Source: Firmicutes bacterium UBA3920 (GTDB taxonomy: Bacteria > Bacillota > Clostridia > Caldicoprobacterales > Xylanivirgaceae). Taken from it: DNA of 64,000 nucleotides. Of the stretch, positions 5,310 through 44,015 are shown in pieces; positions within the stretch are counted from its first letter, which is position 1; each line of letters opens with the position of its first letter. The stretch covers positions 20,587 through 84,586 of the forward strand of contig DGES01000026.1 of the NCBI GenBank assembly GCA_002386065.1, in the 5' to 3' direction. The notes beneath the pieces were generated by a model. The model had not been told where the DNA came from. It ran no database searches and worked only from the letters and a program-made list of their open reading frames with translations. Both the position numbers and the translations under genes were made by a program.

Positions 5310-6599
5310 TCATTCATATTTTAAAAATTTTCTAACTTCACCTATCAAATATATAGAGCCACTGAATACAATTATATCATTTGATTTAACCATTTTTTCT
5401 GCCATACGTATCGCATCGTCTATTCTATTAGCTACCAATATATTATCACAATACATGCCTGCTATTTGAGAAAGTTTATGCGGTTCCATCGCTCGAGGAT
5501 TATTTGGCGATGTAACTATTACTGTATGAGATATAGGACATAATGATTTTAATATCTTGTTCACTTCTTTATCTTTTAATATACCTATAACTAATATAAT
5601 ACGTCTATCCCCGTAATACTGTTTTATAGTATCCGCTAATATTTTAGCACTTGCCTCATTATGAGCACCATCAATTATTATATCAGGATTAGTTCTAATT
5701 TTTTCTAGTCTACCAGGCCATTTTGTAGATGCTAAACCATCTATAACCGCTATATCTGATATGGTAATCCCCATATTATTTAATGCAAATATAGCAGTAA
5801 GTACAGTTATAGCATTTAATATCTGATGTTTTCCCGTAAGGTGGATAGTTATAGTATCTAATTCCCATTCTCCATACGTAAAATTAAATTTTTGTAGACC
5901 GAATTCTGAAAAAAGCATATCAAACTTTGCATCTGCAACATTGTATATAATTGCATTTTTCTTACGAGCTATATCAGAAAGTACTGAAAATACCTCTTTT
6001 ATCTGAGGATAGATTACAACTGGAGTATTGGGCTTTATTATTCCTGCTTTTTCAAATGCTATAGACTCTATACTATCTCCTAATATATTCATATGATCAT
6101 AGCTTATAGATGTAATTATTGTAAGTACAGGATTTATAACATTGGTTGCATCCAATCTACCTCCTAAACCAGTTTCTACAACTGCATAATCAACTTTTTG
6201 TTCTGCAAAATATGTGAAACCAATGGCTGTCACTATTTCAAATTCTGTTGGATGATCATATCCATCTAGTATCATTTTATCGATATGGTTTTTTATATCT
6301 GTTGTAATACGAGCTAATGCGTCTTTGTCTATAAGTTCTAAGTTTACTTGTATTCTCTCCCTAAAATCCTCAAGGTAGGGAGAGGTAAACATCCCTACCT
6401 TGTATCCTTGTTTCTTTAAAACATAGGCTAACATTGCTGCAGTAGAACCCTTTCCATTTGTACCGGCTATGTGTATTGATTTAAATTTATCTTGCGGATT
6501 ATCTAATCTTTTTAGTAATTCACTCACATTTCTAAGGCCACATTTTATACCAAATCTGTTTGTATCATGTATATATTTCAGTGCTTCTTCATACGTCAT
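5310..6599 (-). CDS. folC: bifunctional folylpolyglutamate synthase / dihydrofolate synthase
   Basis: HIAGTNGKGST P-loop of the Mur ligase family, length 429 aa, classic valS-folC arrangement. Confidence 0.9.
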   Translation of the reverse strand: MTYEEALKYIHDTNRFGIKCGLRNVSELLKRLDNPQDKFKSIHIAGTNGKGSTAAMLAYVLKKQGYKVGMFTSPYLEDFRERIQVNLELIDKDALARITTDIKNHIDKMILDGYDHPTEFEIVTAIGFTYFAEQKVDYAVVETGLGGRLDATNVINPVLTIITSISYDHMNILGDSIESIAFEKAGIIKPNTPVVIYPQIKEVFSVLSDIARKKNAIIYNVADAKFDMLFSEFGLQKFNFTYGEWELDTITIHLTGKHQILNAITVLTAIFALNNMGITISDIAVIDGLASTKWPGRLEKIRTNPDIIIDGAHNEASAKILADTIKQYYGDRRIILVIGILKDKEVNKILKSLCPISHTVIVTSPNNPRAMEPHKLSQIAGMYCDNILVANRIDDAIRMAEKMVKSNDIIVFSGSIYLIGEVRKFLKYE

Positions 6600-6628
6600 G
6601 TAATGTCCCTCTCTCTAAGCACATTATT

Positions 6629-9286
6629 TTAATCCATCATTTCATCTAATTCTTTCAATCTTTCTATTACTTTAAATAGTATGGATTCATACTCTTTTTT
6701 CTTTCTTCTTTCTTCTTCAACTATATGTTCAGGTGCTTTCTTTACGAAATTCACATTTTCCAGCTTACTTTGAGCCCTTTTGACTTCCTTTTCCAGTCTA
6801 GCTTTCTCAGATAACAGTCTATCTCTTTCCTTATCAAAATCAATTAAGTCTTCTAATGGTATAAAAATTTGCGCCTTTGATGTAACTGCTGATGCTGTCC
6901 CCTTTGGGATCACATCTTCGCTACTTTCTATTATTATTTCCCCAATACCTGCAAGTTTCTCAAAATATATTGCACCATTTAAAAGCACATCTTCCCAATC
7001 AGGTTGGGAAACAATATACATTTTAGCTTTTTTACCCATGGGTACATCCATTTCTGAACGTATATTTCGTATTGCTCTTATTATATCCATTATCTCTTCC
7101 ATCTTTTCTTCTGCCTGTATATCTATTTCTTCTGTATCAACAGTGGGCCATTTTGCTATCATTATACTCTCATATTGTACGGGCATATGTTGCCAAATCT
7201 CTTCAGTTATAAAAGGCATAAACGGATGAAGTAGCTTAAGGGTATTGGATAATACATACACTAATGTAGACATTGCTACCTGTCTTGCGTCGTCATCGCT
7301 CCCATATAGCCTAGGTTTAACCAATTCTATATACCAATCGCAAAATTCATCCCAAGTAAAATCATATATCTTTTGAGCTGCTATACCTAATTCAAACTTT
7401 TCCATATTATCTGTAACTTCTTCTACAAGGCGATTATATTTACTTATAATCCATCTATCAGGTAATTCCAGCTTTCGAACAGGTACTGGTTTTAGTTCAA
7501 TATTGAGATTTTCAAGATTCATAAGAATAAATCTGGCAGCATTCCAGACCTTATTTGCAAAGTTTCTACAAGCCTCTACTTTTTCCCAACGAAATCTCAT
7601 GTCATTACCTGGAGACGTACCAACAACTAAACTCAATCTCAATGCATCGGCACCATATTTATCAATAACCTCGAGAGGGTCAACACCATTACCCAAAGAT
7701 TTACTCATTTTCCGCCCCTCTGAATCCCTTACAATACCATGTATAAACACATATTCAAATGGTATCTCGCCCATGTGAGCAAGTCCAGAAACAATCATTC
7801 TTGCTACCCAGAAAAATATTATGTCATAGCCTGTTACAAGCACATCAGTTGGATAAAAATATTCAAGTTCAGCCGTTTTATCTGGCCAACCTAAGGTTGA
7901 AAATGGCCATAAGGCAGAACTAAACCACGTATCAAGTACATCTTCGTCTTGCTTAAAACTAGAAGCTCCACACTTAGGACAATTTTCTGGTTTAGATCTT
8001 GCAACTACCATTTCATTGCAATTTTCACAATAATATGCAGGTATTCTATGTCCCCACCATAGTTGCCTTGAAATACACCAATCCTTTATATTTTCCATCC
8101 AATTAAAATATATCTTGCTAAAACGTTCAGGTATAAATTTTATCTTACCTTCTTTAACGACATCAATTGCAGGTTTTGCAAGGGGCGCCATTTTTACAAA
8201 CCACTGTCTAGAAACTATAGGTTCTACAGTGGTGTGGCACCTATAGCAATGACCTACATTATGCTTATGGGCCTCTATTTTATGAAGAAATCCTTGCTCT
8301 TTTAAATCTGATACTATCTTTTGCCTTGCCTCATATCTATCCATACCCACATATTTACCTGCATTATCATTCATTGTAGCACTATCATCCATTATACGTA
8401 TTTGAGGCAAATTATGGCGCAATCCTATTTCAAAGTCATTTGGGTCATGAGCCGGAGTTATCTTAACCACACCTGTACCAAACTCCCTATCTACATAGCT
8501 ATCTGCTATTATAGGTATTTCTCTATTTACAAGAGGAAGCAGAATTTTTTTACCTATTAGATGAGAGTATCTTTCATCATCTGGATGTACAGCAACTGCC
8601 GTATCTCCAAGCATTGTCTCTGGACGGGTGGTAGCAATTATAACACTTTCATTAGAATCTATAATTGGATATTTTATATACCAAAAATATCCATTATCTT
8701 CCTCATATTCTACCTCCGCATCTGAAAGAGCTGTTTGACAATCGGGGCACCAATTTATTATCCTATCTCCTCTATATATAAGCCCTTCTTCATAAAATCT
8801 TACAAATACTTCTGTTACAGCCCTACTACAACCTTCATCCATGGTAAATCTCTCTCTAGACCAATCACAAGAAGAACCTAACTTTTTAAGCTGTTCTACT
8901 ATTCGACCACCATATTGCTCCTTCCATTTCCAAGCCCTTTCCAAGAAAGCTTCTCTTCCAAGATCGTGTTTTGTAAGACCTTCTTTTTTTAGTTCTTCTA
9001 TTATTTTTACCTCAGTAGCTATACTGGCATGATCTGTCCCTGGTAACCAAAGAGCAGCATACCCTTCCATACGCCTCCACCTTATTAGAATATCTTGAAG
9101 TGTGTTATCAAGGGCATGTCCCATATGCAATTGGCCTGTTATATTAGGCGGCGGCATCACTATACAATATGGGTCTTTTTCTTCATCTACTTCTGCTTTA
9201 AAATAATCATTTTTCATCCACATATCGTAAATTCTATCTTCAACTTTACTAGGATCATATGTCTTGGCAATTAATTTATTTGACAT
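6629..9286 (-). CDS. valS: valine--tRNA ligase
   Basis: 885 aa. HMGHALDN (HIGH) and KMSKSLGN (KMSKS) motifs. C-terminal coiled coil. Confidence 0.97.
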
Positions 9287-33940: not shown

Positions 33941-34115
33941 CCCAAAAATAATAAAGCACATGACCTTATTTTGAGTGAACATGTGCTTTATCATATATTC
34001 CGACTTAATAATCAGAATATAAAAATGCATTTAAACCACAATCCACTCATAGTAGAGCAATTTTCGGTTGCCCCGTAGAAACTCCCAGACCATATTACTG
34101 GGGATATATGAGTTG
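33941..34115 (-). promoter_or_regulatory. purine riboswitch, guanine class, with terminator expression platform
   Basis: Minus strand: ACTCATATATCCCCAGTAATATGGTCTGGGAGTTTCTACGGGGCAACCGAAAATTGCTCTACTATGAGTGG. P1 is TCATA/TATGA, and a C precedes UAUGAG at the specificity position. Downstream hairpin AAAGCACATG/CATGTGCTTT (33953-33989) plus U-run. Confidence 0.9.
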
Positions 34116-34316
34116 TGCTCTCTTGACATATTTATACTATCAAAACACTATAAAAAAGTCAATCATGTATTTGAACGTTTTTTTGTTTTTTGGATAAATC
34201 GTTCGGTTTTTATTTTTATGCGTTGAATCTCCAGCTTTTTTAAATATCCATAATCGATAAAAATACATGTCAGTGATAGATCAAAGCACTTTGCAAACAT
34301 ATCATTCCACCTTTAC

Positions 34317-34700: not shown

Positions 34701-34875
34701 AAATACGTAGGTAGTAGTATTAGGCAGAAGGACAAGATTACCAGGCATAAAAACTTCGAAATATTCCTAGAGGAATTGAGAAACCAGGAAGGTCTAATAA
34801 CAGATTTTGAGGAAGATAAAGTAAAAGTTGTTTTTAAAAATGGAATAGAAATTTAGGATTAGTTAATGACTACTG

Positions 34876-34927: not shown

Positions 34928-35704
34928 CTATTTAAGCTTAAATCTCACTATTTTCTTAATTTCTTCTAAATCTTCTGCATGAGCCAAAGAAGGATAAGCT
35001 TCTTTATTAAAAATCAAGCCTTTGTTCGATTCTAGAAACACCCAACGTTCTCCATCTGCTAGCCCATATTCTGCAAGCTCTAATAGTACCAACTCTTTCC
35101 CATTCTCCTCTCTAATAGAATTTTCATTATATGTTATGGGCATAAATATTCCTTTTCCACCTACAACCATTTGAGAAGAAATACTGGTCTCAGAGACATG
35201 GATATTTGTATCTATGGGACCTGGTAATAGAATTTTAACGGTGTTTCCTTCTACAAGATCTCCTCTTATAACATCAGTAACATTAATATAAGCGATAGCA
35301 CGATAATCTTTATATCCATCATAATCACATTCTATATTGCGAATATCATCCACAATGCCTTCAAAAGCAACTATTTTTAAATCAGCATATTTTTCTCCAA
35401 ATAATTCAGTTTCCATTAGCCATTCAATATCTCCACTACTTGCTACAGCAGGTGGATTCTCAACATATCTTACATTGACTCCCTTAGATAATTCAAGAGG
35501 AAGATTTCCATTATCGCTATTAAAAAAAGACATAGATATTGTTACAATCAAAGCCAAGCTAGCTAGGATAGCTGCAACTTTAAAGTAGAATATTGGTTTT
35601 TTACTTATAATTTTAGTATGTTCTTTTTCTCCTCTTGGTTCAGCCTCAATGATATATTTGTCATCAATGTCGCCAATAATATTCAAAAGTTTTCTATTTT
35701 TCAT
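34928..35704 (-). CDS. single-pass membrane protein, putative anti-sigma factor / sigma-associated protein
   Basis: Start overlaps the sigma gene stop (ATGA). N-terminal LLNIIGDIDDKYIIEAE motif, common in partners of clostridial ECF sigmas. One TM helix, then an extracytoplasmic domain. Confidence 0.55.
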   Translation of the reverse strand: MKNRKLLNIIGDIDDKYIIEAEPRGEKEHTKIISKKPIFYFKVAAILASLALIVTISMSFFNSDNGNLPLELSKGVNVRYVENPPAVASSGDIEWLMETELFGEKYADLKIVAFEGIVDDIRNIECDYDGYKDYRAIAYINVTDVIRGDLVEGNTVKILLPGPIDTNIHVSETSISSQMVVGGKGIFMPITYNENSIREENGKELVLLELAEYGLADGERWVFLESNKGLIFNKEAYPSLAHAEDLEEIKKIVRFKLK

Positions 35705-36264
35705 AATGAAATCCCTTCTTTCTCTAATTCTCTTTTCAGTTTTTTTCGAATTCTAAAGAGGATTGATTTTACTTTGCTATCAGTAAATCCGTAGTCCTCC
35801 CCTATTTCTTTAATACTGCTTCCGTACCAATAGCGGCGAACAAAAACTTTACGTTGACTTCTATCTATACCCCCAAGAAAATTATTAATTACTTCTATTA
35901 GGTACTTCTCGTCCATTATGTTTTCAACATCTGATTGGGCAGAAGGTATAGATTCTTCAAGCTCTGATAAAATCAGATCAATTTGTCCTCCACCACGTTT
36001 ATCTACAGTTCTTTTTTCTAGATAATTTAAGGAAAGATTACGGGTGATTTTGCCTAAAAAGGTGCGTAAATTGGAAGGCCTCGCTGGTGGAATTGCACCC
36101 CAGGCTCTCAAAAAAGTATCACTAACACATTCTTCAGCATCCTCATTATTTTGTAGAATTCTTATAGCTATTGTGTAGCAATATCTTGAATATTTTACCC
36201 TTACTTCACTGATAGCTATTTCTGATCGTTTCCAGAATAAATTAATAATTTTATCATCATCCAT
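35701..36264 (-). CDS. ECF-type sigma-70 family RNA polymerase sigma factor
   Basis: Region 2 (DAEECVSDTFLRAW) and region 4 HTH (SIKEIGEDYGFTDSKVKSILFRIRKKL), 187 aa. Confidence 0.85.
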   Translation of the reverse strand: MDDDKIINLFWKRSEIAISEVRVKYSRYCYTIAIRILQNNEDAEECVSDTFLRAWGAIPPARPSNLRTFLGKITRNLSLNYLEKRTVDKRGGGQIDLILSELEESIPSAQSDVENIMDEKYLIEVINNFLGGIDRSQRKVFVRRYWYGSSIKEIGEDYGFTDSKVKSILFRIRKKLKRELEKEGISL

Positions 36265-36349: not shown

Positions 36350-36604
36350 TTATTTTAAAATACGTTTCAAAAAAATAATGACATTCTTTTATGTCACTAT
36401 AATACTCCAACAATATTCATTTTTAAATAAATTCTGCCTCTTTATCACTGCACACCCCTTTTTCAATTTGCACACCCATATGCACAGTACCTTTTAGGAT
36501 AATTAAATTGTATCAATCTCTGCAAGATTATATCTATGTTCTTACCGTCTTTGATACAATTCTATAAGCAGAAATTTATATGTTGGTAGATCCCATTTAG
36601 CAGA

Positions 36605-36627
36605 AAAGCCCTTATATCAAGGGCTTT
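36605..36627 (-). terminator. intrinsic terminator of the defence-like cassette
   Basis: AAAGCCCTT / AAGGGCTTT hairpin. On the minus strand it is followed by TTTTCTGC. Lies about 175 nt downstream of the 979-aa gene. Confidence 0.6.
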
Positions 36628-36802: not shown

Positions 36803-39742
36803 CTAGCCTTCAAATTCTTCTATAATTCTTTCTACATAAGCCAATCGTCCACGACCTAAAGCAGCATAATAAGTAGCGTGTTTTCTACAAGCATCTATCG
36901 CTTTCTGTAAAGCTAGTTCGCCATAGTCTTCATAGATAGCCTTTAAAAAATATCTAGTAGAGTATTCATTAAGAGTTCTTGTATATCTTTCACCATTCAT
37001 CATGGCATAAAAAGCTGAAATATAATCTCCTGCTGAACCAGGGTTCATATTGACTTTATTCGCAATTTCTTCTTTACCCTCTGTTCTCCCCAACTCTCCT
37101 TTAAAGACTTTTTTAGAAATTATGTAAGCATAAGCCACCATTTCACTAGTGATACTATTATTCTCTATATACAGATTAGCCCCCGTATCTATTTCCTCTA
37201 AAGTCGATTTCAATTTATCAAATTGTAGGATTAACCATTTGAAATTCTGTAAATATAACTCTGGATTAAATACATCTGTTTCTATAGAATGTAATATCCT
37301 TCTCGCGGTGCTAGTCTTACGACTTGTATACCATTCAAGTTCATAACCATATATTTTTTCTATTTCATCCTTCAAGAATTCTAACCTCTTAAAAGTTTCT
37401 GGTTGATGAACATAAATACCGATGCGTAAAATATTTTGTTTCATAATTTGAAAAAATATATAATAATCACTATTTCCAATTGATACATCATAGCTATTAG
37501 AATAAGAGGGAGTTTGAGAAGCTATATCTTCACCTCGGTCAATGGACTTGCAGTAATCGACAAAACTGCTCCAAAAATTAAATCGTTGCTGTTGGGTGTC
37601 TGTTAGCTCTTCATTTTTAAGTGAAGAGTTATTAGCTGTTCCAACTATATCATTTGTTGTAGGTTCTGGAATTTCTGGCACCTCATCTCTTTCTTCATTT
37701 ACAAAACCAATATGGAGTAATTCATTTTTTTGTTCTGCTGTAAAGTTGAGACCCCACCTACTTTCCATAAATTCTAAAAGTTTTAGCCCTCTATTTAATA
37801 TCGATTTAGGAGTCCAGTCTTCTTCTATAGCCACCTCTATCTCTGAATGCGATCCATTAATATAACCTCTTCTTTTTGATGAAGGGTTCTTTTTATCAGG
37901 GAAACTATCATTTTGCAATGAAGAATTTATGCTCTGCGCAAGGGGTAATAGATTACCTAAACTAGCGGACAAAATCTTTATTTCATCTTCATTAAAATGA
38001 CGAATTTGATTACGCCAATACCATTTAGTTGGTGTCTGCGGCAAAATATGTTCAATTGTAATTTTGTCTTTTTCAACCTTTGAAAACATCTGCCAGTCTA
38101 TTTTTTGAATATTGTTCTTAATAGATAAGTGGCTTTCGTACTCATATAAAAAATATCTTAAATCTCGCCAGCCATAAAAGCCTAAACCAGAATCGAATCG
38201 TCTATCTGTTCTAGCTATAAAGCTTGCTATAATTGAATTTAAGTCATTATCTATTGTTTCCATTAAATCATCTGCCACAGAGTTTAGACTTATTTTTCTC
38301 TGTAAAACATCTCTTGCCTTATTGTAATAATAGCTACTTTTATAGCTGGCATTATATCCTGCCATTCGGAAACAAAGAAATATAAATCGTTCTATTTCTT
38401 TAAAAAGTAAAACACGTTCCTCCGCCCCAACTTCATTTTTGAGAGACAAAGATATAGCTACTAATGGTCTAAAATATCCAATTCCAATTCTATTTAATTT
38501 ATTAATCCATTGTTTTTCCTCGTCAGTCAATTCATCACTATCATGGGGAAAATAAGTATAATACCAGTATTCTGCGATCTCCTTTAGACTATTCACATAA
38601 GCATTTATCTCATTTGGAGCTAATTCACTTACTAGGATTGTTTCCTCTTCCGTATTTCCTATTACATCCTCATCTTCAAATTCTTCATCTTCAGTTTGAG
38701 GTTCAGCTATTTCATTCTCAATTACTACAGGATGCTTATTAAATACATTTTTTGAAGAGAATTTATTCAATAAAAATTTAATGTAGTCATCGCCTTTTCT
38801 ACGAGTATATTGAAAGTATACCGTCCAATGAGCCCTTAAAAATTCATCATCAGATAAAGGATGGTTTTGATTTCTTCCTAGTTGATAGTAGATTTCTTTC
38901 CAAGCATCATTGATATTCTTTCTTAATTGTCCTTTATCCTTATCGTCTAACTGTTCATCATCAAACAAAGTTGTTAAATAAATAAGTCTATTTTTTAAAA
39001 GTTCTAAATTACTAAGTTTTTTTCCTCTATTATTCATAGTTTCAAAGGCCACAAAAACATCGTAATCATCTTCAATTTCATGTAAATTAAACATTAATTT
39101 TAATGTAAGCCTTTTGTATAAACTTTCAATTCCAGGCATTCCTTCTACTTCAAACAAAGATTCAAGGTTTCTAGCAAAGAACTTTTTTGCATACATAAGA
39201 TTTTGAGTATAATAAGTTTCAACAATTGTTCCACCAAATTGTTCTTCAAATATTTTATATTTTAAATAATTATAGCTAGGATTATCTAGCTCATATCCAA
39301 ACATATATGTTTTAATCAGATTTTCTGGTGGACGGCTCTTCACTATGTATTTTTCTGTAATAGCTTTGATAGATTCAAACCCTATGAATATCTGGTCATC
39401 AGATTTTCCTTGGTTTTCTTCTAGCTTCTTAATAAAAGATATTATCTCATACATAAGTATAGAAAACGTGGTTAATCTTTGCTGACCATCTACAATATGA
39501 TATGCTTTATAACCAATATCAATCAACCAGCTGTCTTCTCCCCATAAACATAAATCTTTTTTATTAACTTCTTTTAAAGACAAAAGTCCAGTATAGTGGT
39601 ATCTATCTTTATGAAGATTTAATAAATCTTCCCAGAAATCTACTAGCTGTTCTTTCTTCCAAGCATATCCTCTTTGATAATCTGGTATTCTAAACAGTCT
39701 ATTTTGAAATAATGTTGATAAAGAAATTAATTCATTTGACAT
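36803..39742 (-). CDS. 979-aa GmrSD-like fusion: DUF262 (ParB-like NTPase) + DUF1524 (His-Me/HNH nuclease) + DUF4268-like + unassigned C-terminal module
   Basis: RIPDYQRGYAWKKEQ and DGQQRLTT (DUF262). ITIEHILPQTP...LGNLLPLAQSINSSLQN (DUF1524). FNFWSSFVDYC...YIFFQI...LRIGIYV...LEW segment (DUF4268-like). The last ~130 aa are not recognised. Confidence 0.85.
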   Translation of the reverse strand: MSNELISLSTLFQNRLFRIPDYQRGYAWKKEQLVDFWEDLLNLHKDRYHYTGLLSLKEVNKKDLCLWGEDSWLIDIGYKAYHIVDGQQRLTTFSILMYEIISFIKKLEENQGKSDDQIFIGFESIKAITEKYIVKSRPPENLIKTYMFGYELDNPSYNYLKYKIFEEQFGGTIVETYYTQNLMYAKKFFARNLESLFEVEGMPGIESLYKRLTLKLMFNLHEIEDDYDVFVAFETMNNRGKKLSNLELLKNRLIYLTTLFDDEQLDDKDKGQLRKNINDAWKEIYYQLGRNQNHPLSDDEFLRAHWTVYFQYTRRKGDDYIKFLLNKFSSKNVFNKHPVVIENEIAEPQTEDEEFEDEDVIGNTEEETILVSELAPNEINAYVNSLKEIAEYWYYTYFPHDSDELTDEEKQWINKLNRIGIGYFRPLVAISLSLKNEVGAEERVLLFKEIERFIFLCFRMAGYNASYKSSYYYNKARDVLQRKISLNSVADDLMETIDNDLNSIIASFIARTDRRFDSGLGFYGWRDLRYFLYEYESHLSIKNNIQKIDWQMFSKVEKDKITIEHILPQTPTKWYWRNQIRHFNEDEIKILSASLGNLLPLAQSINSSLQNDSFPDKKNPSSKRRGYINGSHSEIEVAIEEDWTPKSILNRGLKLLEFMESRWGLNFTAEQKNELLHIGFVNEERDEVPEIPEPTTNDIVGTANNSSLKNEELTDTQQQRFNFWSSFVDYCKSIDRGEDIASQTPSYSNSYDVSIGNSDYYIFFQIMKQNILRIGIYVHQPETFKRLEFLKDEIEKIYGYELEWYTSRKTSTARRILHSIETDVFNPELYLQNFKWLILQFDKLKSTLEEIDTGANLYIENNSITSEMVAYAYIISKKVFKGELGRTEGKEEIANKVNMNPGSAGDYISAFYAMMNGERYTRTLNEYSTRYFLKAIYEDYGELALQKAIDACRKHATYYAALGRGRLAYVERIIEEFEG

Positions 39743-39768
39743 TTAGGCACTTCCTCCCTTCGATGACA

Positions 39769-40653
39769 TTAGTCCTCATTATTCTCTATTTCCCTTAAAG
39801 TTCTTCCTTTTTCATCTAGCCACATAATTATTCCATTAGCACTAGCATATGTCACAAAACCTGCTGCAGCGGATGGGCTAGTAAAAAGAGTGTCCTCAAT
39901 CAACACCCCATCTTTAACCCTATCAGTATATTTGTTTCTCAAATTAAGTATAGTTTCTGGGCAACTTTTAGTAGGACTAACTGAAACCGATGCATCTTTA
40001 TAAACAACAAATCCTTCATTTGTCCTTCTACCCTTGGCTTCAGCTTTAGTTGTTTTCAAGACTAACAATGGCTCATCATTAATTTCAACATCTTCTTCTA
40101 CCTTATGAGTTGGCTTTTCCTCTAATGAGTCAAAAACCCTATGCCCGAATGTCCCCATAACTATTTCAGCATATTCTATAAATTCTTCTAGTTCACTCTC
40201 TTTTTCTTCAGTTACATGGCCAGAGGCTGGGTTTACATTGTTTTTAACATTATATCTTTTAGCATCTTTGGCTAAATTAAAAAATCTGTTTTCTAAATAA
40301 CTTATCTCAGTTGGTCCAAAAGAATTATTTGATGTAGTAAAAACAATTGCTTCCATCCAATAGTCTTTGTTCTCATCCCTTTTATGCTCCTGTAGACGAT
40401 AGAGAATACCTTCACCATTTTTCCTCGCTCCTGCTTGACCTATATAAACAATATTTTCTCCTGTATCATCAGATATCCCAAACAAGAAATATACTCCACT
40501 TTGTTTAAGATCTTCCCGTTCTTTACATTTATCAAGTTCTGTCCTAGGTATTTTATATGCAACTACTGTCCAGTTAGCGAGAGTGCATTTTATCCTTCCA
40601 ACAGCTGTCCCATCCATAAGAAATAAATTAATACTTTTACCACGTACCGCCAT
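39769..40653 (-). CDS. GIY-YIG-like nuclease with C-terminal DUF4357-like domain
   Basis: GVYFLFG...IVYIGQAG...LQEH...ISYLENRF (GIY-YIG pattern). C-terminal GFVVYKDASV...FTSPSAAAGFVTYASANG resembles DUF4357. SD AGAGGTGAG upstream. Ends 26 nt before the next gene. Confidence 0.78.
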   Translation of the reverse strand: MAVRGKSINLFLMDGTAVGRIKCTLANWTVVAYKIPRTELDKCKEREDLKQSGVYFLFGISDDTGENIVYIGQAGARKNGEGILYRLQEHKRDENKDYWMEAIVFTTSNNSFGPTEISYLENRFFNLAKDAKRYNVKNNVNPASGHVTEEKESELEEFIEYAEIVMGTFGHRVFDSLEEKPTHKVEEDVEINDEPLLVLKTTKAEAKGRRTNEGFVVYKDASVSVSPTKSCPETILNLRNKYTDRVKDGVLIEDTLFTSPSAAAGFVTYASANGIIMWLDEKGRTLREIENNED

Positions 40654-40731
40654 ATTTGCTCACCTCTTTATATACACTTTAAATTTATTGCTTTATATAA
40701 AATTGATGATTTAACCAATTTAGTTATTTTC

Positions 40732-41097
40732 TTAGGCATAAGAATCACTTCCTAGCGGTTTAACATTATTGGCTTCAAGCATTTCATTTATTTCATAAAT
40801 GCTATTTACAGCACACGCCCCTAATATACATTTATAAATATACCCCTCTTCCTTCATGGAGTTAAGTTTAAAATCTGACTTATCTAATAACATTTCAGCT
40901 TCGGGTACTGGCAACTTTAAACCGACACATAAGCCCAATATAGATTGTATCGAAGTGGGATATTCTTCCTCATTCCTTAAACGCTGAATAGTTCTTTCAC
41001 CTACAAGTGAAACATCAGCTAATTTTTTATTAGTCATTTTTCGTTCTTCCATAAGCATTACTAATGTTTCTGCAAATGATCCTGGATACCTACGCAT
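40732..41097 (-). CDS. XRE-like helix-turn-helix protein (likely real start inside the chimeric 286-aa ORF)
   Basis: FAETLVMLMEERKMTNKKLADVSLVGERTIQRLRNEE is an N-terminal HTH typical of small Firmicute regulators. The start (M at 41097, alternatively 41160) is uncertain because the frame is open up into the hsdM remnant. Confidence 0.45.
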   Translation of the reverse strand: MRRYPGSFAETLVMLMEERKMTNKKLADVSLVGERTIQRLRNEEEYPTSIQSILGLCVGLKLPVPEAEMLLDKSDFKLNSMKEEGYIYKCILGACAVNSIYEINEMLEANNVKPLGSDSYA

Positions 41098-41302
41098 AGC
41101 ATCAGCTTTTTTCTTTGCACTCTGTATCTGATTGAGAAGAGAAGAATTATGAGCATTCATCTCAAATGAAAACTCTACGCTTGAAGGTTGTATCTCAGCT
41201 TTTGCTAGAAAATAAGAATAATTCTTTTGATTATAATATACCGATTCATAGATATAACCTTTTTTAAATACTAAACAGCATCCATCAATATTTGCCAAAG
41301 CT

Positions 41303-41878
41303 TGATCATAGACTCTACCATTGTAAGACTCTAATATTTCAACTAACGTTCTCACTATGCTTGAAGGTGTGTAGAACTCCCCCGCTCTTCTCCCTTCTTG
41401 TTCTGCAAACATTGCTAGACAATACTCATAAGTTCTACCTAAAACATCCTTTTTATCTCTATAATCTGATAATGGGATATTCGAAAATATGTCTACTACT
41501 TCCCCCAATCTTCTCTTGTCTAATTTAGGTCTAGAGAAGTTTTTCGGCAAGATCCCTTTTAATCTGTTATTCTTTCTTTCTATTGCCACCATAGCTTTGC
41601 CTTATTTCTGGCTTGTTAGAATGTTTTGCTATATAGTCCCATCTGGCTTCCTCTGGCACATAGAATATGTTTTCTACCAAATATTCATCTCTTTCCTCCT
41701 CAAACCCTGCGCCTTCTTCTACTAGCTCTTGGTATTTCTCCTCGAAGCTATCTGATATATATTTTAAAAATATAAGTCCCAATACTACATGTTTATATTC
41801 AGAGGCATCTATATTACCTCGTAATTTATCCGCTGCCTGCCAAATTTTCTTTTCAAAACCTAAGTCTGCTGTATTCAT
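41303..41878 (-). pseudogene. hsdM: type I restriction-modification methylase (HsdM) remnant: frameshifted and 3'-truncated
   Basis: HsdM N-terminal domain (KIWQAADKLRGNIDASEYKHVVLGLIFLKYISD). The frame breaks near 41602-41604: removing one A from GAAATAAGG restores PEIGKAMVAIE. It continues as LKGILPKNFSRPKLDKRRLGE...EFYTPSSIVRTLVEIL...RVYD, then loses similarity exactly where motif I (DPACGSGG) should begin. Confidence 0.8.
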
Positions 41879-42010
41879 TGGTATGTAACCCCTCCTACTA
41901 TCCTTATTATGTGACTATAGCACTTAGCACCCTGAAATTCCAAAGAGCACTGAATGTTCATATATACCTTTAGTGAATTTATTGTATCATAGTGTGAGGT
42001 TGTATTTCAA

Positions 42011-42295
42011 TTATGGCATTAGAAAATCTGTTATATCAGCAGCACCAATTGCAAATATATATTGCAAAGTTTCAAATAGTAAACTCGTTTCTGCTATGGG
42101 AATAACTTTCCTTATAAAACTCCAATCAGGTTTTAGTATAGATATGTAAATTCCGAAGGGAACAAAAACAAGAACATTAAGATAGATTTCTGTATAATCA
42201 ATTTTATCATTAATAATAACCGACTCTGAAAAAGGTATTAAATTAACTTTTCGAATAGCATATAAAATAAACCTTATAACAGCTATTTCTGCCAT
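42011..42295 (-). CDS. VanZ-like family fragment (94 aa)
   Basis: NLIPF, NVLVFVPFG and ETLQYIF..G..DITD motifs of VanZ-like proteins. Shorter than usual and without a clear SD, so possibly a remnant. Confidence 0.5.
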   Translation of the reverse strand: MAEIAVIRFILYAIRKVNLIPFSESVIINDKIDYTEIYLNVLVFVPFGIYISILKPDWSFIRKVIPIAETSLLFETLQYIFAIGAADITDFLMP

Positions 42296-42428: not shown

Positions 42429-43952
42429 CTACTCCCACTCAATTGTTGCAGGTGGTTTATTGGATATATCATATACCACCCTATTTACATGGTCCACTTC
42501 TGTAGTTATCCTGTGAGATACCTTCTCTAAAACGTCATAGGGAATCCTAACCCAATTTGCAGTCATGCCATCCACACTATTTACCGCTCTAAGTGCTACC
42601 GTGTAATCGTAAGTTCTTCCATCACCAGATACGCCTACACTTTTCATAGATGTAAGGACAGCAAAGTATTGCCATATTTCCCTTGCAAGACCTGCTTTTG
42701 CAATTTCTTCCCTATATATTGCATCTGCCTCCTTGAGGATATGGAGCTTTTCTTCTGTTATATCACCAATTATCCTAACAGCTAGCCCAGGTCCAGGAAA
42801 TGGCTGCCGCCAGACTATCTCCTCAGGCATTCCAAGTTCTAAACCAACTTTCCTCACTTCATCTTTAAATAGTTGTCTAAGTGGTTCTATTATACCTTTA
42901 AACTCAATATTATCAGGTAATCCGCCAACATTGTGATGACTCTTTATAATACCTTTTCGTCCTATGCCACTTTCTATGACATCAGGATATATAGTACCTT
43001 GTACTAAATAATCTACTTTACCTATTTTTAGAGCTTCTTCCTCAAATACCCTTATAAATTCTTCACCTATTATCTTTCGTTTGAGCTCAGGATCTGTCAC
43101 TCCCTTTAATCTGGAAAGAAATCTATCTTTGGCATCTACCTTTATTATATTTAAATTAAACTTCTCTTTGAAAAAATTAACTACTTCTTCTCCTTCGTTT
43201 TTTCGTAAAAGTCCATGATCTACAAATATGCATATAAGTTGATCGCCTATCGCTTTGTGCACTAAAACTGCAGCCACAGAACTATCTACACCACCTGATA
43301 AACCGCAAAGCACTTTTCCATCCCCGACTTTTTCTCTTATATCATTTATAGAACAATCTACAAAATTACTTGTAGTCCAATCATCCTTACAACCACATAT
43401 ATTGTATACAAAATTTTTTAATATTTTATCATTATCATTAACCTCCGGATGAAACTGTACTCCATATATTTGACTTTTTTTATTTTCAAATGCAATTATA
43501 GGATATTTTTCTGTATAACCTATTGCGTCAAACCCTTGAGGTAGAGATTTTATATAGTCCACATGAGCTAACCAATATCTATTTTTTCTATCTAACCCAG
43601 TAAATAATTCGCTATCTGTATCTAAATATACTGTTGATTCGCCATATTCACGATCTTCAGACCTTTTTATACATCCATCCAATAGATAGCAAATTACCTG
43701 TGCGCCATAACCGATACCCAATATGGGCACCCCTAGATTGAATATTTCATTAGAAAAATGAACAGTGTTCTCACATTCAGAGCTAATATTCCCCGATAAT
43801 ACTATTCCTTTAATATCTTCCAAATTAATTTCTTCTATCGAAGCATTATATGGTATAAGCTCACAATATACATTCATTTCTCTAATTTTTCTAGCTAATA
43901 GTTGGCTATATTCTCCTCCAAAATCCATTATTAGAATTGTCTGCCTTTTCAT
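42429..43952 (-). CDS. guaA: GMP synthase (glutamine-hydrolysing type) with degenerate glutaminase motifs
   Basis: ATP-PPase motif [11 protein letters not shown]-terminal [11 protein letters not shown] 43952 follows GAGGAGGG. The GATase nucleophile position reads GIGYGAQ rather than G-x-C-Y-G-x-Q. Confidence 0.93.
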
Positions 43953-44015
43953 TTCATCCCTCCTCATATAATATGTTTTTAAGCTGCACATTTTGTGCAG
44001 CTTAGAAATATATAT

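Follow-up and report, generated by a model that had tools for sequence, protein, structure and literature searches.

A candidate defence locus with two putative nuclease genes beside a dead type I restriction-modification operon

The 64,000-nucleotide stretch of DNA analyzed here (the window) contains two adjacent nuclease-like genes beside the remains of a type I restriction-modification (R-M) system. The question is whether these genes belong to named defence systems, and whether they work singly, together, or as companions of the lost R-M system. A defence role for the locus is the most reasonable reading. As a whole, the locus is best read as two self-sufficient modification-dependent (type IV-like) nucleases, the cargo of a decayed integrative element, and we consider this moderately probable.

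Intact genes and remnants

The two genes, G3 and G2, are intact, co-directional ORFs on the minus strand, separated by a gap of 26 nt in the ORF list. G3 (36803–39742) encodes a GmrSD-family protein of 979 aa, and G2 (39769–40653) encodes a protein of 294 aa with GIY-YIG-type motifs and a DUF4357/RAMA-like domain. The SD sequences of the G3 and G2 ORFs are GAAGGGAGGAAG and AAAGAGGTGAG, and 78 nt separate G2 from the ORF upstream. The initial annotation described three co-directional genes, each with its own SD. This is correct for G2, G3, and the gaps of 78 and 26 nt, but the third, an 'HTH gene' at 40732–41097, was rejected as a separate gene – it has no SD, lies inside a 286-aa ORF, and is the tail of a YgjP-like gene. 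An HTH_26 match is under the Pfam cut-off (19.9 vs. 22 bits).

The first ca. 98 codons of the 286-aa ORF (40732–41592) are hsdM, and the remainder is the 3' end of the YgjP-like gene. This YgjP-like/M78/HTH remnant (40732–41299, minus strand) is a pseudogene piece of about 190 codons. Locus L091 has a YgjP-like gene of 853 aa whose 3' end (6295–6864) shares 95% DNA identity with it, starting at ca. 41300 in the window, and a deletion has joined the remnant in frame to truncated hsdM. PHROG 4031 matches only the C-terminal end of the remnant. The hsdM gene (41300–41878, minus strand) is both truncated and frameshifted, with fragments at 41567–41878 and 41300–41592. It has Pfam matches to HsdM_N and N6_Mtase, the latter covering positions 2–81 of 311, and a PADLOC match to MTase_I, and it stops at ...RVYD(Q)A, the start of methyltransferase motif I. 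The type I R-M system adjoining G2 and G3 is dead: only the two hsdM fragments are left, hsdS and hsdR have been lost, and the ygjP-like gene is mostly missing. The locus is in a variable island beside this dead system, as was first noted.

A terminator-like hairpin (AAAGCCCTT/AAGGGCTTT; 36605–36627, minus strand) with a 9-bp stem and a 5-nt loop is found 176 nt past the G3 stop. The hairpin said to close the cassette is present, and its stem is followed by TTTTCTG. Loci L001, L094, and L097 also have a comparable hairpin. Upstream of the hsdM remnant there is a promoter-like site (TTGAAA-18-TACAAT with TG; 41981–42010, minus strand), which by its sequence is a possible origin of read-through transcription into G2 and G3. 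Across the region, promoter-like matches are no more numerous in total than in shuffled sequences.

Domains and relatives of G3 and G2

Pfam places three domains in G3: GmrSD_N (DUF262), a ParB-like NTPase domain, at aa 9–253 (window nt 38984–39718); GmrSD_C (DUF1524), an HNH nuclease domain, at aa 526–657 (37772–38167); and DUF4268 at aa 720–850 (37193–37585). DUF262 contains the DGQQR motif and DUF1524 the EH...N HNH motif. DGQQRLTT and EHILPQ are invariant among aligned homologues, as are residues D85 G86 Q87 Q88 R89 and E564 H565 in an alignment of 20 of them. The last 129 aa (aa 851–979; 36806–37192, minus strand) have no match in Pfam and are helical in the AF2 model (pLDDT ~90). This tail is a mobile domain without annotation, found in 796 representative proteins – elsewhere it is alone, or fused to HNH, PLD/NgoFVII-type, McrB-like AAA_5, or NOV_C domains. 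About half of the close relatives of G3 (ca. 855 aa) lack the tail, and others have PF23870, PF24698, or DUF6508 tails. The Pfam domains and invariant motifs bear out the original assignment of DUF262, DUF1524, DUF4268, and a tail, and by sequence G3 belongs to the GmrSD-type enzymes, enlarged by extra modules. It has more than 6500 homologues, and neighbours of G3 homologues include R-M, Mrr, and Cas9 genes; the NCBI name for its relatives is 'DUF4268 domain-containing protein'.

In PADLOC, G3 matches HEC-06, Orf5, SspE, and mREase_IV, and its DUF4268 part matches PDC-S11. Like the GmrSD type IV enzymes (Eco94/EcoCT GmrSD; HEC-06), G3 combines in one polypeptide a DUF262 (DGQQR) at the N-terminus and, after a long helical linker, a C-terminal DUF1524 HNH (EH...N), and it adjoins or is embedded in other defence systems. 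Unlike them, it adds DUF4268 and the helical domain past the nuclease. The GmrSD-like HEC-06 protects against phages, and DGQQR and EH mutants lose this protection (bioRxiv 10.1101/2024.01.29.577857); its models are ca. 560 aa and match G3 mainly over the N-terminal 310 residues (7–316) plus a second stretch. The domain order of G3 is exactly that of the DUF262-DUF1524-DUF4268 architecture of Machnicka et al. 2015 (PMC4619093), apart from the additional tail with no Pfam family, and GmrSD proteins are known to carry DUF4268 or DUF4357 as additions. BrxU and SspE, GmrSD-like proteins with solved structures, have DUF262 and DUF1524 in common with G3. When PDB sequences were searched with a profile, a 'DUF262 domain-containing protein' (9jfl, E 3e-7) and SspE (E 3e-4) matched over the N-terminal domain. 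Unlike in the settings of BrxU and SspE, no BREX or sspABCD genes are near G3 among the window ORFs, and the similarity is confined to DUF262. DUF4268 is also found in MdgA/MdgB, modification-dependent nucleases that defend against T4 but not T4-GT7, for which it was proposed as a substrate-recognition module (bioRxiv 10.1101/2025.02.28.640651). Compared with G3, MdgA/MdgB have other nuclease domains, as single-domain partners and not GmrSD. The DUF4268 model weakly resembles YbjN and secretion-chaperone folds (E 0.03), which is uninformative on DNA binding.

The GIY-YIG-type core of G2 is at about 40249–40506 and the C-terminal DUF4357/RAMA-like domain at about 39778–40068, with DUF4357 placed at aa 250–286 by Pfam. 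GVYFLFG, VYIGQAG, and ISYLENRF are invariant in an alignment of 66 homologues. Of the earlier description of G2 as GIY-YIG plus DUF4357, the motifs and DUF4357 stand, but the GIY-YIG call is weaker than it was stated, coming from the motifs, the predicted order of strands and helices, and NCBI naming. None of the Pfam GIY-YIG models is significant for the family (GIY_YIG_2 has E 0.15 in 3 of the 66 members), a profile search of PDB sequences gave no confirmation of the fold, and Foldseek against the PDB found nothing. RAMA matches overlap DUF4357 in 47 of the 66 relatives, all below threshold (14–17 bits vs. the Pfam cut-off of 35). RAMA domains are fused to URI(GIY-YIG), ParB, HNH, T5orf172, and McrB, with predicted m6A discrimination (Iyer, Zhang, Aravind 2016, PMC4738411). 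Like these fusions, G2 would combine a nuclease with a small restriction-associated reader in R-M neighbourhoods, though its reader is DUF4357 in Pfam.

G2 is a full-length match to the PADLOC candidate PDC-S14 (model PDLC04925, E 6.6e-108). PDC-S14 is a single-gene phage defence candidate, and PDC families were defined as genes lying within type I RM, BREX, or DISARM systems (Payne et al. 2024 preprint). The match is end to end, and the place of G2 at the tail of an R-M operon is what the discovery method would imply; here, however, the R-M system is dead and G2 is followed by a GmrSD gene. The initial annotation held that the locus matches no named system, unless profile searches were to say otherwise. 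They do: G2 is PDC-S14 and G3 matches the PADLOC models given above. The architecture of G3 was also published in 2015 (PMC4619093), and nuclease–RAMA fusions in 2016 (PMC4738411). As both gene families are already catalogued, this is a plausible but fairly ordinary candidate defence locus of modest novelty.

A mobile block and its proposed function

G2 and G3 move as a 4.1-kb block, from the G2 start codon to 36533, which is found behind differing upstream operons with 85–88% DNA identity. The 3' end of the block falls exactly on the crossover of a serine-recombinase att site, whose central GA is at 36533–36534. This 56-bp att-type site (36506–36561, minus strand) is AATTGTATCAA-AGACGGTAAGAACATA-GA-TATAATCTTGCAGAGA-TTGATACAATT. 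One and the same att arm adjoins at least four different methyltransferase families, with junctions at motif I or motif IV. In the window, the site is un-recombined and the integrative element is decayed; of a large serine recombinase gene, the C-terminal 57 codons remain (34728–34853, plus strand), 53% identical to a recombinase in L174 (tblastn, E 3.8e-9). Some ICEs use serine integrases to integrate within hsdM (Ambroset et al. 2016, PMC4701971), and the locus shares with them the serine recombinase and the disrupted type I methyltransferase gene. Unlike in those ICEs, the att arm recurs beside several methyltransferase families, and in the window the element has decayed and its att site is un-recombined.

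In the favoured reading, what survives at the locus is the tail of a type I R-M operon that has decayed, and the operon itself would once have been cargo at one end of the element, which a large serine recombinase would have driven. G2 and G3 are each most likely a self-sufficient restriction nuclease with no need for a methyltransferase of its own. In G3, the DUF262 ParB-like NTPase (DGQQR) would drive or license cutting, the DUF1524 His-Me (HNH) nuclease would cut the DNA, and DUF4268 and the helical domain, both non-catalytic, would probably aid the choice of target, e.g. phage DNA with modified bases. G2, as a GIY-YIG-type nuclease joined to a DUF4357/RAMA-like domain, would cut DNA with a foreign modification pattern, because domains of the RAMA-like class are predicted readers of adenine methylation or of other modified bases. 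The two genes would be co-transcribed as well as travelling together, and their products probably act in parallel, each against phages that escape ordinary R-M through DNA modification. Both genes are intact although hsdM is truncated and hsdS and hsdR are gone, which is consistent with enzymes that do no harm when no cognate methyltransferase is present.

Self-sufficient enzymes or partners

The G2 and G3 families have thousands of members each, mostly one without the other, and members of both commonly close type I/III R-M operons at their 3' end. Nevertheless, the pair recurs, with gaps of 0–30 nt or overlapping codons, behind at least 8 different upstream contexts, including type I (the window/L091, L021, and L159), type III (L094/95 and L030), and type IIG-like (L092 and L177) systems and loci with no R-M (L175/176). 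All relatives with at least 80% identity retain the pair, and the identities of G2 and G3 drop together across pairs. This recurrence could mean functional coupling: G2 and G3 would then be one cooperative two-protein system, either a sensor and an executor or a hetero-complex in which the combined reader domains set specificity. Persistent adjacency, retention, parallel divergence, and a sharp-ended block moving as a unit are all consistent with such a system, but shared inheritance on one mobile block accounts for the correlated divergence as well. A DUF4357 gene is upstream in only 3 of 61 G3-seeded loci, and a GmrSD gene is downstream in only 6 of 56 G2-seeded loci, so 'tightly coupled', as the pair was first described, applies to its recurrence and its movement and not to the families at large. 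In addition, a nuclease and a putative reader are present in each of the two proteins, the GmrSD-like HEC-06 and BrxU function as single genes, and PDC-S14 was defined as a single-gene candidate. We regard a cooperative system as unlikely.

It is more doubtful still that G2 serves type I/III R-M systems that methylate adenine, as an accessory reading their m6A marks – e.g. to cut unmarked DNA or to back up the R subunit – and is here left-over baggage of the dead hsdMSR operon. G2 often follows hsdR or res and could thus act together with such systems: of 48 genes directly upstream of G2 homologues, about 20 encode type I/III restriction subunits or YgjP/HsdS companions (ResIII, HsdR, T1R_D3, RE_endonuc, YgjP-like, or HsdS). 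The RAMA class is by definition linked to adenine methylases and restriction enzymes, and the PDC families derive from R-M-embedded genes. However, once the methyltransferase is destroyed, a nuclease restrained by its methylation should be lethal or decay, while G2 is intact with all conserved residues present, and 22 contigs from several samples carry the identical protein at this locus. A GIY-YIG gene that always travels with hsdM/hsdS/hsdR, a case raised at the outset, would agree with those 20 or so neighbours but not with a G2 that outlived its R-M, nor with pairs that have no R-M nearby (L175). G2 homologues also occur in phage genomes.

The self-sufficient reading of G2 has one further rival, a very improbable one, in which G2 is a homing-type endonuclease mobilising the cassette and not a defence gene: some GIY-YIG enzymes are free-standing homing endonucleases and the conserved block starts exactly at the G2 start, but the locus has no intron or intein context, the serine-recombinase att site accounts for the 3' end of the block, the C-terminal domain of G2 is of a restriction-associated reader type, and its homologues are often at R-M operon tails.

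Layout of the island and remains of a type I operon

An island of about 8 kb on the minus strand lies between guaA (42429–43991) and a purine riboswitch (34030–34131). It contains two intact genes: G2 (39769–40653, minus strand), which encodes a GIY-YIG-type protein of 294 aa with a DUF4357 domain, and G3 (36803–39742, minus strand), which encodes a GmrSD-family protein of 979 aa. Each has a strong SD sequence, 26 nt separate them, and a terminator-like hairpin with a 9-bp stem followed by TTTTCTG (36605–36627) closes the unit. A promoter scan gave 40 promoter-like sites in the region and 40.1 in shuffled sequence, so that without an excess over shuffles the suggested promoter is a candidate only.

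One edge of the island is the riboswitch (minus strand, 81 bits), upstream of a xanthine permease/pur operon, and the other is a 94-aa VanZ-like ORF (42011–42295, minus strand) adjoining guaA. In streptococci, ICEs are known to integrate at the guaA 3’ end (PMC4701971). The source of the window is an uncultured Clostridiales bacterium from anaerobic digesters; the identical locus is present in GCA_012840745.1 and in the Foulum biogas metagenome, and 22 contigs from several samples have an identical G2.

The type I R-M system next to the two genes is dead, as initially annotated. Its hsdM is reduced to the N-terminal ~195 codons with a frameshift, and neither hsdS nor hsdR was found at the locus. 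The ORF upstream of G2 spans 41592 to 40732 and begins with ~98 codons of hsdM (N6_Mtase profile positions 2–81 of 311, ending ...GRVYD); a second hsdM fragment (HsdM_N, 41567–41878) is out of frame. Downstream from about 41300, the window DNA is 95% identical to L091, one of the genome, metagenome and viral loci (L-numbers) fetched for comparison. The counterpart in this metagenome locus makes up the final ~190 codons of an ORF of 853 aa, which lies behind an intact hsdR and has a YgjP-like metallopeptidase domain; an 851-aa homologue in L037 additionally has a weak M78 match. The junction of hsdM with L091-type sequence indicates that a deletion took out hsdS and hsdR together with the 3’ part of hsdM and most of the ygjP-like gene, leaving an in-frame chimera.

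The end of this chimera had been read as a stand-alone HTH gene (40732–41097). No SD was found before the ATG at 41097, and the DNA identity with L091 reaches 200 nt upstream of this supposed start. The 121-residue “HTH protein” matches PHROG 4031 at its C-terminal end only, and is 73–76% identical to the C-termini of 851-aa proteins (L032, L037, L043, L046, L077). It is a pseudogene remnant of the 851–853-aa kind of protein. The initial annotation of three genes thus retains the two intact ones and loses the third.

A large YgjP-like and M78 protein with a C-terminal HTH, or its M78-HTH part, recurs at the tails of type I R-M operons, immediately before G2 homologues or an Mrr-GmrSD pair. Occurrences are in L091 (4303–6864), L118, L150, L152 and L159 (upstream of G2 homologues), and in L032/L037/L043/L046/L077 (6468–9023).

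Domains of the two proteins

Pfam places GmrSD_N/DUF262 at aa 9–253 of G3 (E 3.8e-29), GmrSD_C/DUF1524 at aa 526–657 (E 8e-18) and DUF4268 at aa 720–850, and gives nothing for aa 851–979, the tail. Both catalytic motifs are present – the DGQQR motif (D85 G86 Q87 Q88 R89) is invariant in 20 sequences, and E564, H565, N597, N606 and N611 of the (D/E)H...N motif are invariant – and the multi-domain reading of G3 with a further tail stands. The DUF262–DUF1524–DUF4268 order was published in 2015, with DUF4357 as an alternative GmrSD add-on that also partners GIY-YIG and T5orf172 domains (PMC4619093), and DUF4268 occurs in the modification-dependent nucleases MdgA and MdgB (bioRxiv 10.1101/2025.02.28.640651). 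More than 6500 homologues of G3 were scored, the tailed forms having ~980 aa and the tail-less ones ~855 aa; they come from Bacillota, Chloroflexota, Bacteroidota and one archaeon, at 55–90% identity. A scan of NCBIfam gave no family for either G2 or G3.

Among PADLOC models, the N-terminal part of G3 matches HEC-06, Orf5, SspE and mREase_IV, and DUF4268 matches PDC-S11, a phage-defence candidate (PDC). The HEC-06 match (E 1.2e-50) is in two stretches, the best of them aa 7–316 against positions 13–291 of 569. HEC-06 is an experimentally validated GmrSD-like defence protein in which DGQQR and EH mutants are inactive (bioRxiv 10.1101/2024.01.29.577857), but G3 is 400 aa longer. SspE models match only aa 13–115, and no sspABCD phosphorothioation genes were found between 30 and 48 kb of the window. 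BrxU is embedded in a BREX locus, whereas G3 is not: its neighbourhood contains no BREX genes, and a profile search of PDB sequences recovered no BrxU structure.

The C-terminal part of G3 (DUF4268 and tail) was modelled with a pLDDT of 83.5. In the model DUF4268 has an alpha/beta fold, in which a helix is followed by three strands and then helices; in Foldseek it is weakly similar to YbjN/AmyR and to secretion chaperones (E ~0.03). We had presumed a PD-(D/E)XK nuclease fold for this domain, and the modelled order of helix, strands and helices does not support it. The tail (36806–37192, minus strand) is a 129-aa helical bundle in the model and found no match in the same Foldseek search.

An exhaustive phmmer search found the tail in 796 representative proteins, many of them stand-alone and of ~120 aa. 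It is a widespread, mobile and unannotated domain. Ten of the proteins were scanned for partners: seven are fusions to nuclease or restriction-type domains (three HNH, three PLD/NgoFVII-type, one NOV_C), one is fused to a McrB-like AAA_5 domain, one has a weak sub-threshold XH match, and one is a 121-aa stand-alone protein with no Pfam domain. Because target-recognition domains of type IV restriction enzymes typically have such partners, we infer that the tail is a new candidate target-recognition domain of restriction nucleases. Its presence is not correlated with that of G2: in L021 and L159 the G3 paired with G2 has no tail, and L002–L006, L012 and L036 have a tailed G3 but no G2.

G2 matches the PADLOC model of PDC-S14 (PDLC04925) end to end (E 6.6e-108, aa 1–292 against positions 13–296 of 301), and also PHROG 12629. 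The PDC systems are 145 candidates taken from genes found inside type I R-M, BREX or DISARM loci (Payne et al. 2024 preprint). More than 5400 homologues of G2 were scored, under the NCBI name “GIY-YIG nuclease family protein”; a search of phages found three, at 29–40% identity. The conserved residues are G53 V54 Y55, Y70 G72, R77/R86 and E116/E121 N122, and the catalytic motifs of both G2 and G3 are invariant in our alignments. In the G2 model (pLDDT 81), an N-terminal sheet precedes a strand-strand-helix-strand-helix core bearing the GIY, YIG, R and E–N residues, followed by a long helix, a disordered linker and a confident C-terminal domain of ~100 residues that includes DUF4357 (Pfam, aa 250–286). 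Pfam GIY_YIG_2 matches 3 of 66 family members, at best with a non-significant E of 0.15; Foldseek of the model against the PDB gave nothing below E 0.1, and the family profile gave chance matches only against PDB sequences. A GIY-YIG nuclease fold is likely from the motifs, the predicted order of strands and helices and the NCBI name.

The RAMA profile (PF18755) overlaps DUF4357 in G2 with 14–17 bits, below the gathering cut-off of 35.2, and covers the DUF4357 region in 47 of 66 relatives, again sub-threshold (E up to 5, best 9e-5). The C-terminal domain of G2 appears to resemble RAMA, a likeness and not membership. RAMA was defined as fused to URI, ParB, HNH, REase, T5orf172 and McrB in adenine-methylating R-M systems, and is predicted to discriminate m6A (PMC4738411).

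G2 and G3 keep every conserved residue though the only methyltransferase of the island has been destroyed. A nuclease restrained by the lost methylation would be expected to cause cell death or to decay, while a modification-dependent nuclease would be expected to do neither. This survival without a methyltransferase, the GmrSD precedent and the reader-type domains lead us to infer that both proteins are type IV-like, cleaving modified DNA with no need of a cognate methyltransferase. Judged by its sequence matches, the locus consists of known kinds – a GmrSD-DUF4268 type IV enzyme and PDC-S14. An unnamed, novel system had been proposed for it; the end-to-end PDC-S14 match and the domain order already in print do not support this. 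Interest in the locus comes from the tail, a restriction-associated domain that lacks annotation, and from the recurrence of the pair as a mobile block. Should the predictions be borne out, the locus would provide a compact, “stripped-down” pair of methyltransferase-independent restriction nucleases from an uncultured Clostridiales bacterium of anaerobic digesters, and a first handle on PDC-S14, on the long GmrSD-DUF4268 clade and on a helical domain shared by many restriction-type nucleases. Enzymes of this sort are useful reagents in the detection of modified bases, and they help to explain how bacteria answer phages that evade R-M through DNA modification.

Association of G2 and G3

In a G3-seeded set of 80 genome loci, 61 could be scored for the gene immediately upstream of G3, and DUF4357 was present in it in 3. 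Other frequent G3 neighbours are HsdR/Res (about 11), Mrr (5) and methyltransferases. In a G2-seeded set of 80 metagenome loci, GmrSD is the commonest family downstream of G2, yet it is found at only 6 of 56 loci; upstream, a type I/III restriction subunit, a YgjP-like protein or HsdS is found in about 20 of 48. From these counts, therefore, the two families are mostly apart, both favouring the 3’ tails of R-M operons.

The pair itself recurs in at least eight different upstream contexts: type I with YgjP (the window and L091), type I (L021), type I with an M78 protein (L159), type III (L094/95 and L030), type IIG-like with S (L092), the same with DndD-like/DUF87 (L177), unknown genes (L097), and no R-M at all (L175/176). 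All relatives with at least 80% identity keep it. The DNA of L092, L094 and L097 shares 85–88% identity with the window over a stretch that starts no more than 14 nt to either side of the G2 start codon (40641–40667) and stops at 36533; outside these limits it is unrelated. This recurrence and the sharp limits indicate that the pair is a facultative module moving as one block. The tight coupling proposed earlier is right in part: it holds for this block, but in the families at large a partner is the exception. Another reading is that G2 is baggage of type I R-M operons; the type I/III subunits and companions often found upstream favour it, but the pair without any R-M in L175/176 does not.

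G2 and G3 more likely act in parallel and independently than in cooperation, because each protein has its own predicted nuclease and reader and single-gene relatives are functional. A plasmid search with the whole block found only distant DUF262 genes, at 65–70% identity over parts of G3.

In L001 (JAAYSY010000314.1), the DNA is 95% identical to the G2–G3 block of the window, and the G3 protein 96%. This contig is binned as Bacteroidales, while the window genome belongs to the Clostridiales; the match reflects either a very recent transfer or a mis-binned mobile element.

Putative attachment site and methyltransferase genes

The shared block DNA stops in the middle of a 56-bp att-type site (36506–36561, minus strand), AATTGTATCAA-AGACGGTAAGAACATA-GA-TATAATCTTGCAGAGA-TTGATACAATT, with perfect 11-bp inverted ends. 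In other loci its left half (the P arm) is joined after the GA, always in frame, to 3’ parts of methyltransferase genes that start at motif I or IV. These junctions are at DPCMGSGH of a PglX-like gene (L001, 3794–3813), DPCCGSGG and DPACGSGS of HsdM-like genes (L003, 3689–3708; L007, 15025–15044), EPACGTGNFF of a 1500-aa methylase-helicase (L094/95; L094 12098–12117) and motif IV DPPYNTG of a Mod-like gene (L097, 7230–7249). The left arm is thus joined to at least four methyltransferase families (motif I P.CG.G or motif IV PPY). In viral contigs L171 and L173, only short remnants follow the left half (EPCCDIG..., DPACNTG...) before the sequences diverge. The right half (the P’ arm) is joined in L174 (306–332) to an N-terminal methyltransferase part ending ...FTPDHICDFMCKVVGVNKHSRVLD, 2–5 kb from two large serine recombinase genes. 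All junctions fall at the central GA, and the window and viral contig L172 have the un-recombined site.

The C-terminal 57 codons of a large serine recombinase (34728–34853, plus strand; 53% identical to L174, E 3.8e-9) remain in otherwise ORF-free DNA between a 258-aa gene and the riboswitch, and this remnant indicates that the island is a decayed recombinase element. At least a dozen of the fetched loci have homologous recombinases in the vicinity of a G2 or G3 relative. The junctions, the recombinases and the shared central dinucleotide all point to the 56-bp site as a putative large-serine-recombinase attachment site. G2–G3 would then be cargo at one end of a serine-recombinase element, decayed in the window, and the element would insert into methyltransferase genes where the Asp-Pro of their SAM-binding or catalytic motif is encoded. 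This suggests an element family that targets methyltransferase genes. That the conserved 3’ end is a relic of one ancestral methyltransferase gene was rejected in view of the reciprocal junction in L174 and of the un-recombined site.

ICEs with serine integrases insert into hsdM in streptococci (PMC4701971). A limited literature search found no description of one att arm targeting several methyltransferase families, and for the biology of mobile elements these fusions may matter more than the cassette itself. Two overlapping genes to the right-arm side of the site (together 34928–36264, minus strand), an ECF-type sigma-70 gene of 187 aa and the 258-aa gene, probably belong to the element and not to the host.

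A joint reading, which we consider improbable, is that G2–G3 is a module of two nucleases dedicated to attacking modified DNA, with modified adenine read by one arm and modified cytosine by the other, and that it travels as end cargo of serine-recombinase elements whose integration into methyltransferase genes knocks these out, so that self-marks vanish; and, separately, that the tail is a new family of modification readers common to HNH, PLD, McrB-like and NOV_C restriction nucleases. If it were true, knocking out the resident methyltransferase would remove the self-marks open to the cargo nucleases, and the choice of target and the cargo would be functionally linked in an inter-element warfare over the host methylome.

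The junction of hsdM with the ygjP-like gene reads ...TATGATCAA/GCTTTGG in the window and GACTAT/GCTTTGG in L091. An origin of this junction by the recombinase was rejected as unproven, and the sequence is not that of the P’ arm; a microhomology deletion appears to fit better. The hsdM break (41299–41310, minus strand; L091 6280–6300) lies a few bases from the motif I Asp-Pro, the position the att site uses elsewhere; on its other side is the middle of the ygjP-like gene, with a possible GCTT microhomology.

Two GGTGTGCA motifs ~20 nt apart adjoin the right arm in the window (36449–36476, minus strand) and in L174 (about 350–400), and similar ones are found on the flanks of the site in L001 and L171; they may serve as accessory or promoter elements. 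In L007 (13074–20855), the att arm is joined to a 5’-truncated hsdM, followed by a 346-aa ORF that by eye looks like a member of the RhuM family. On the far side of the arm are a 619-aa ORF, presumably like a double Dam-type methylase, and ORFs that by eye resemble a McrB/McrC (LlaJI-type) system.
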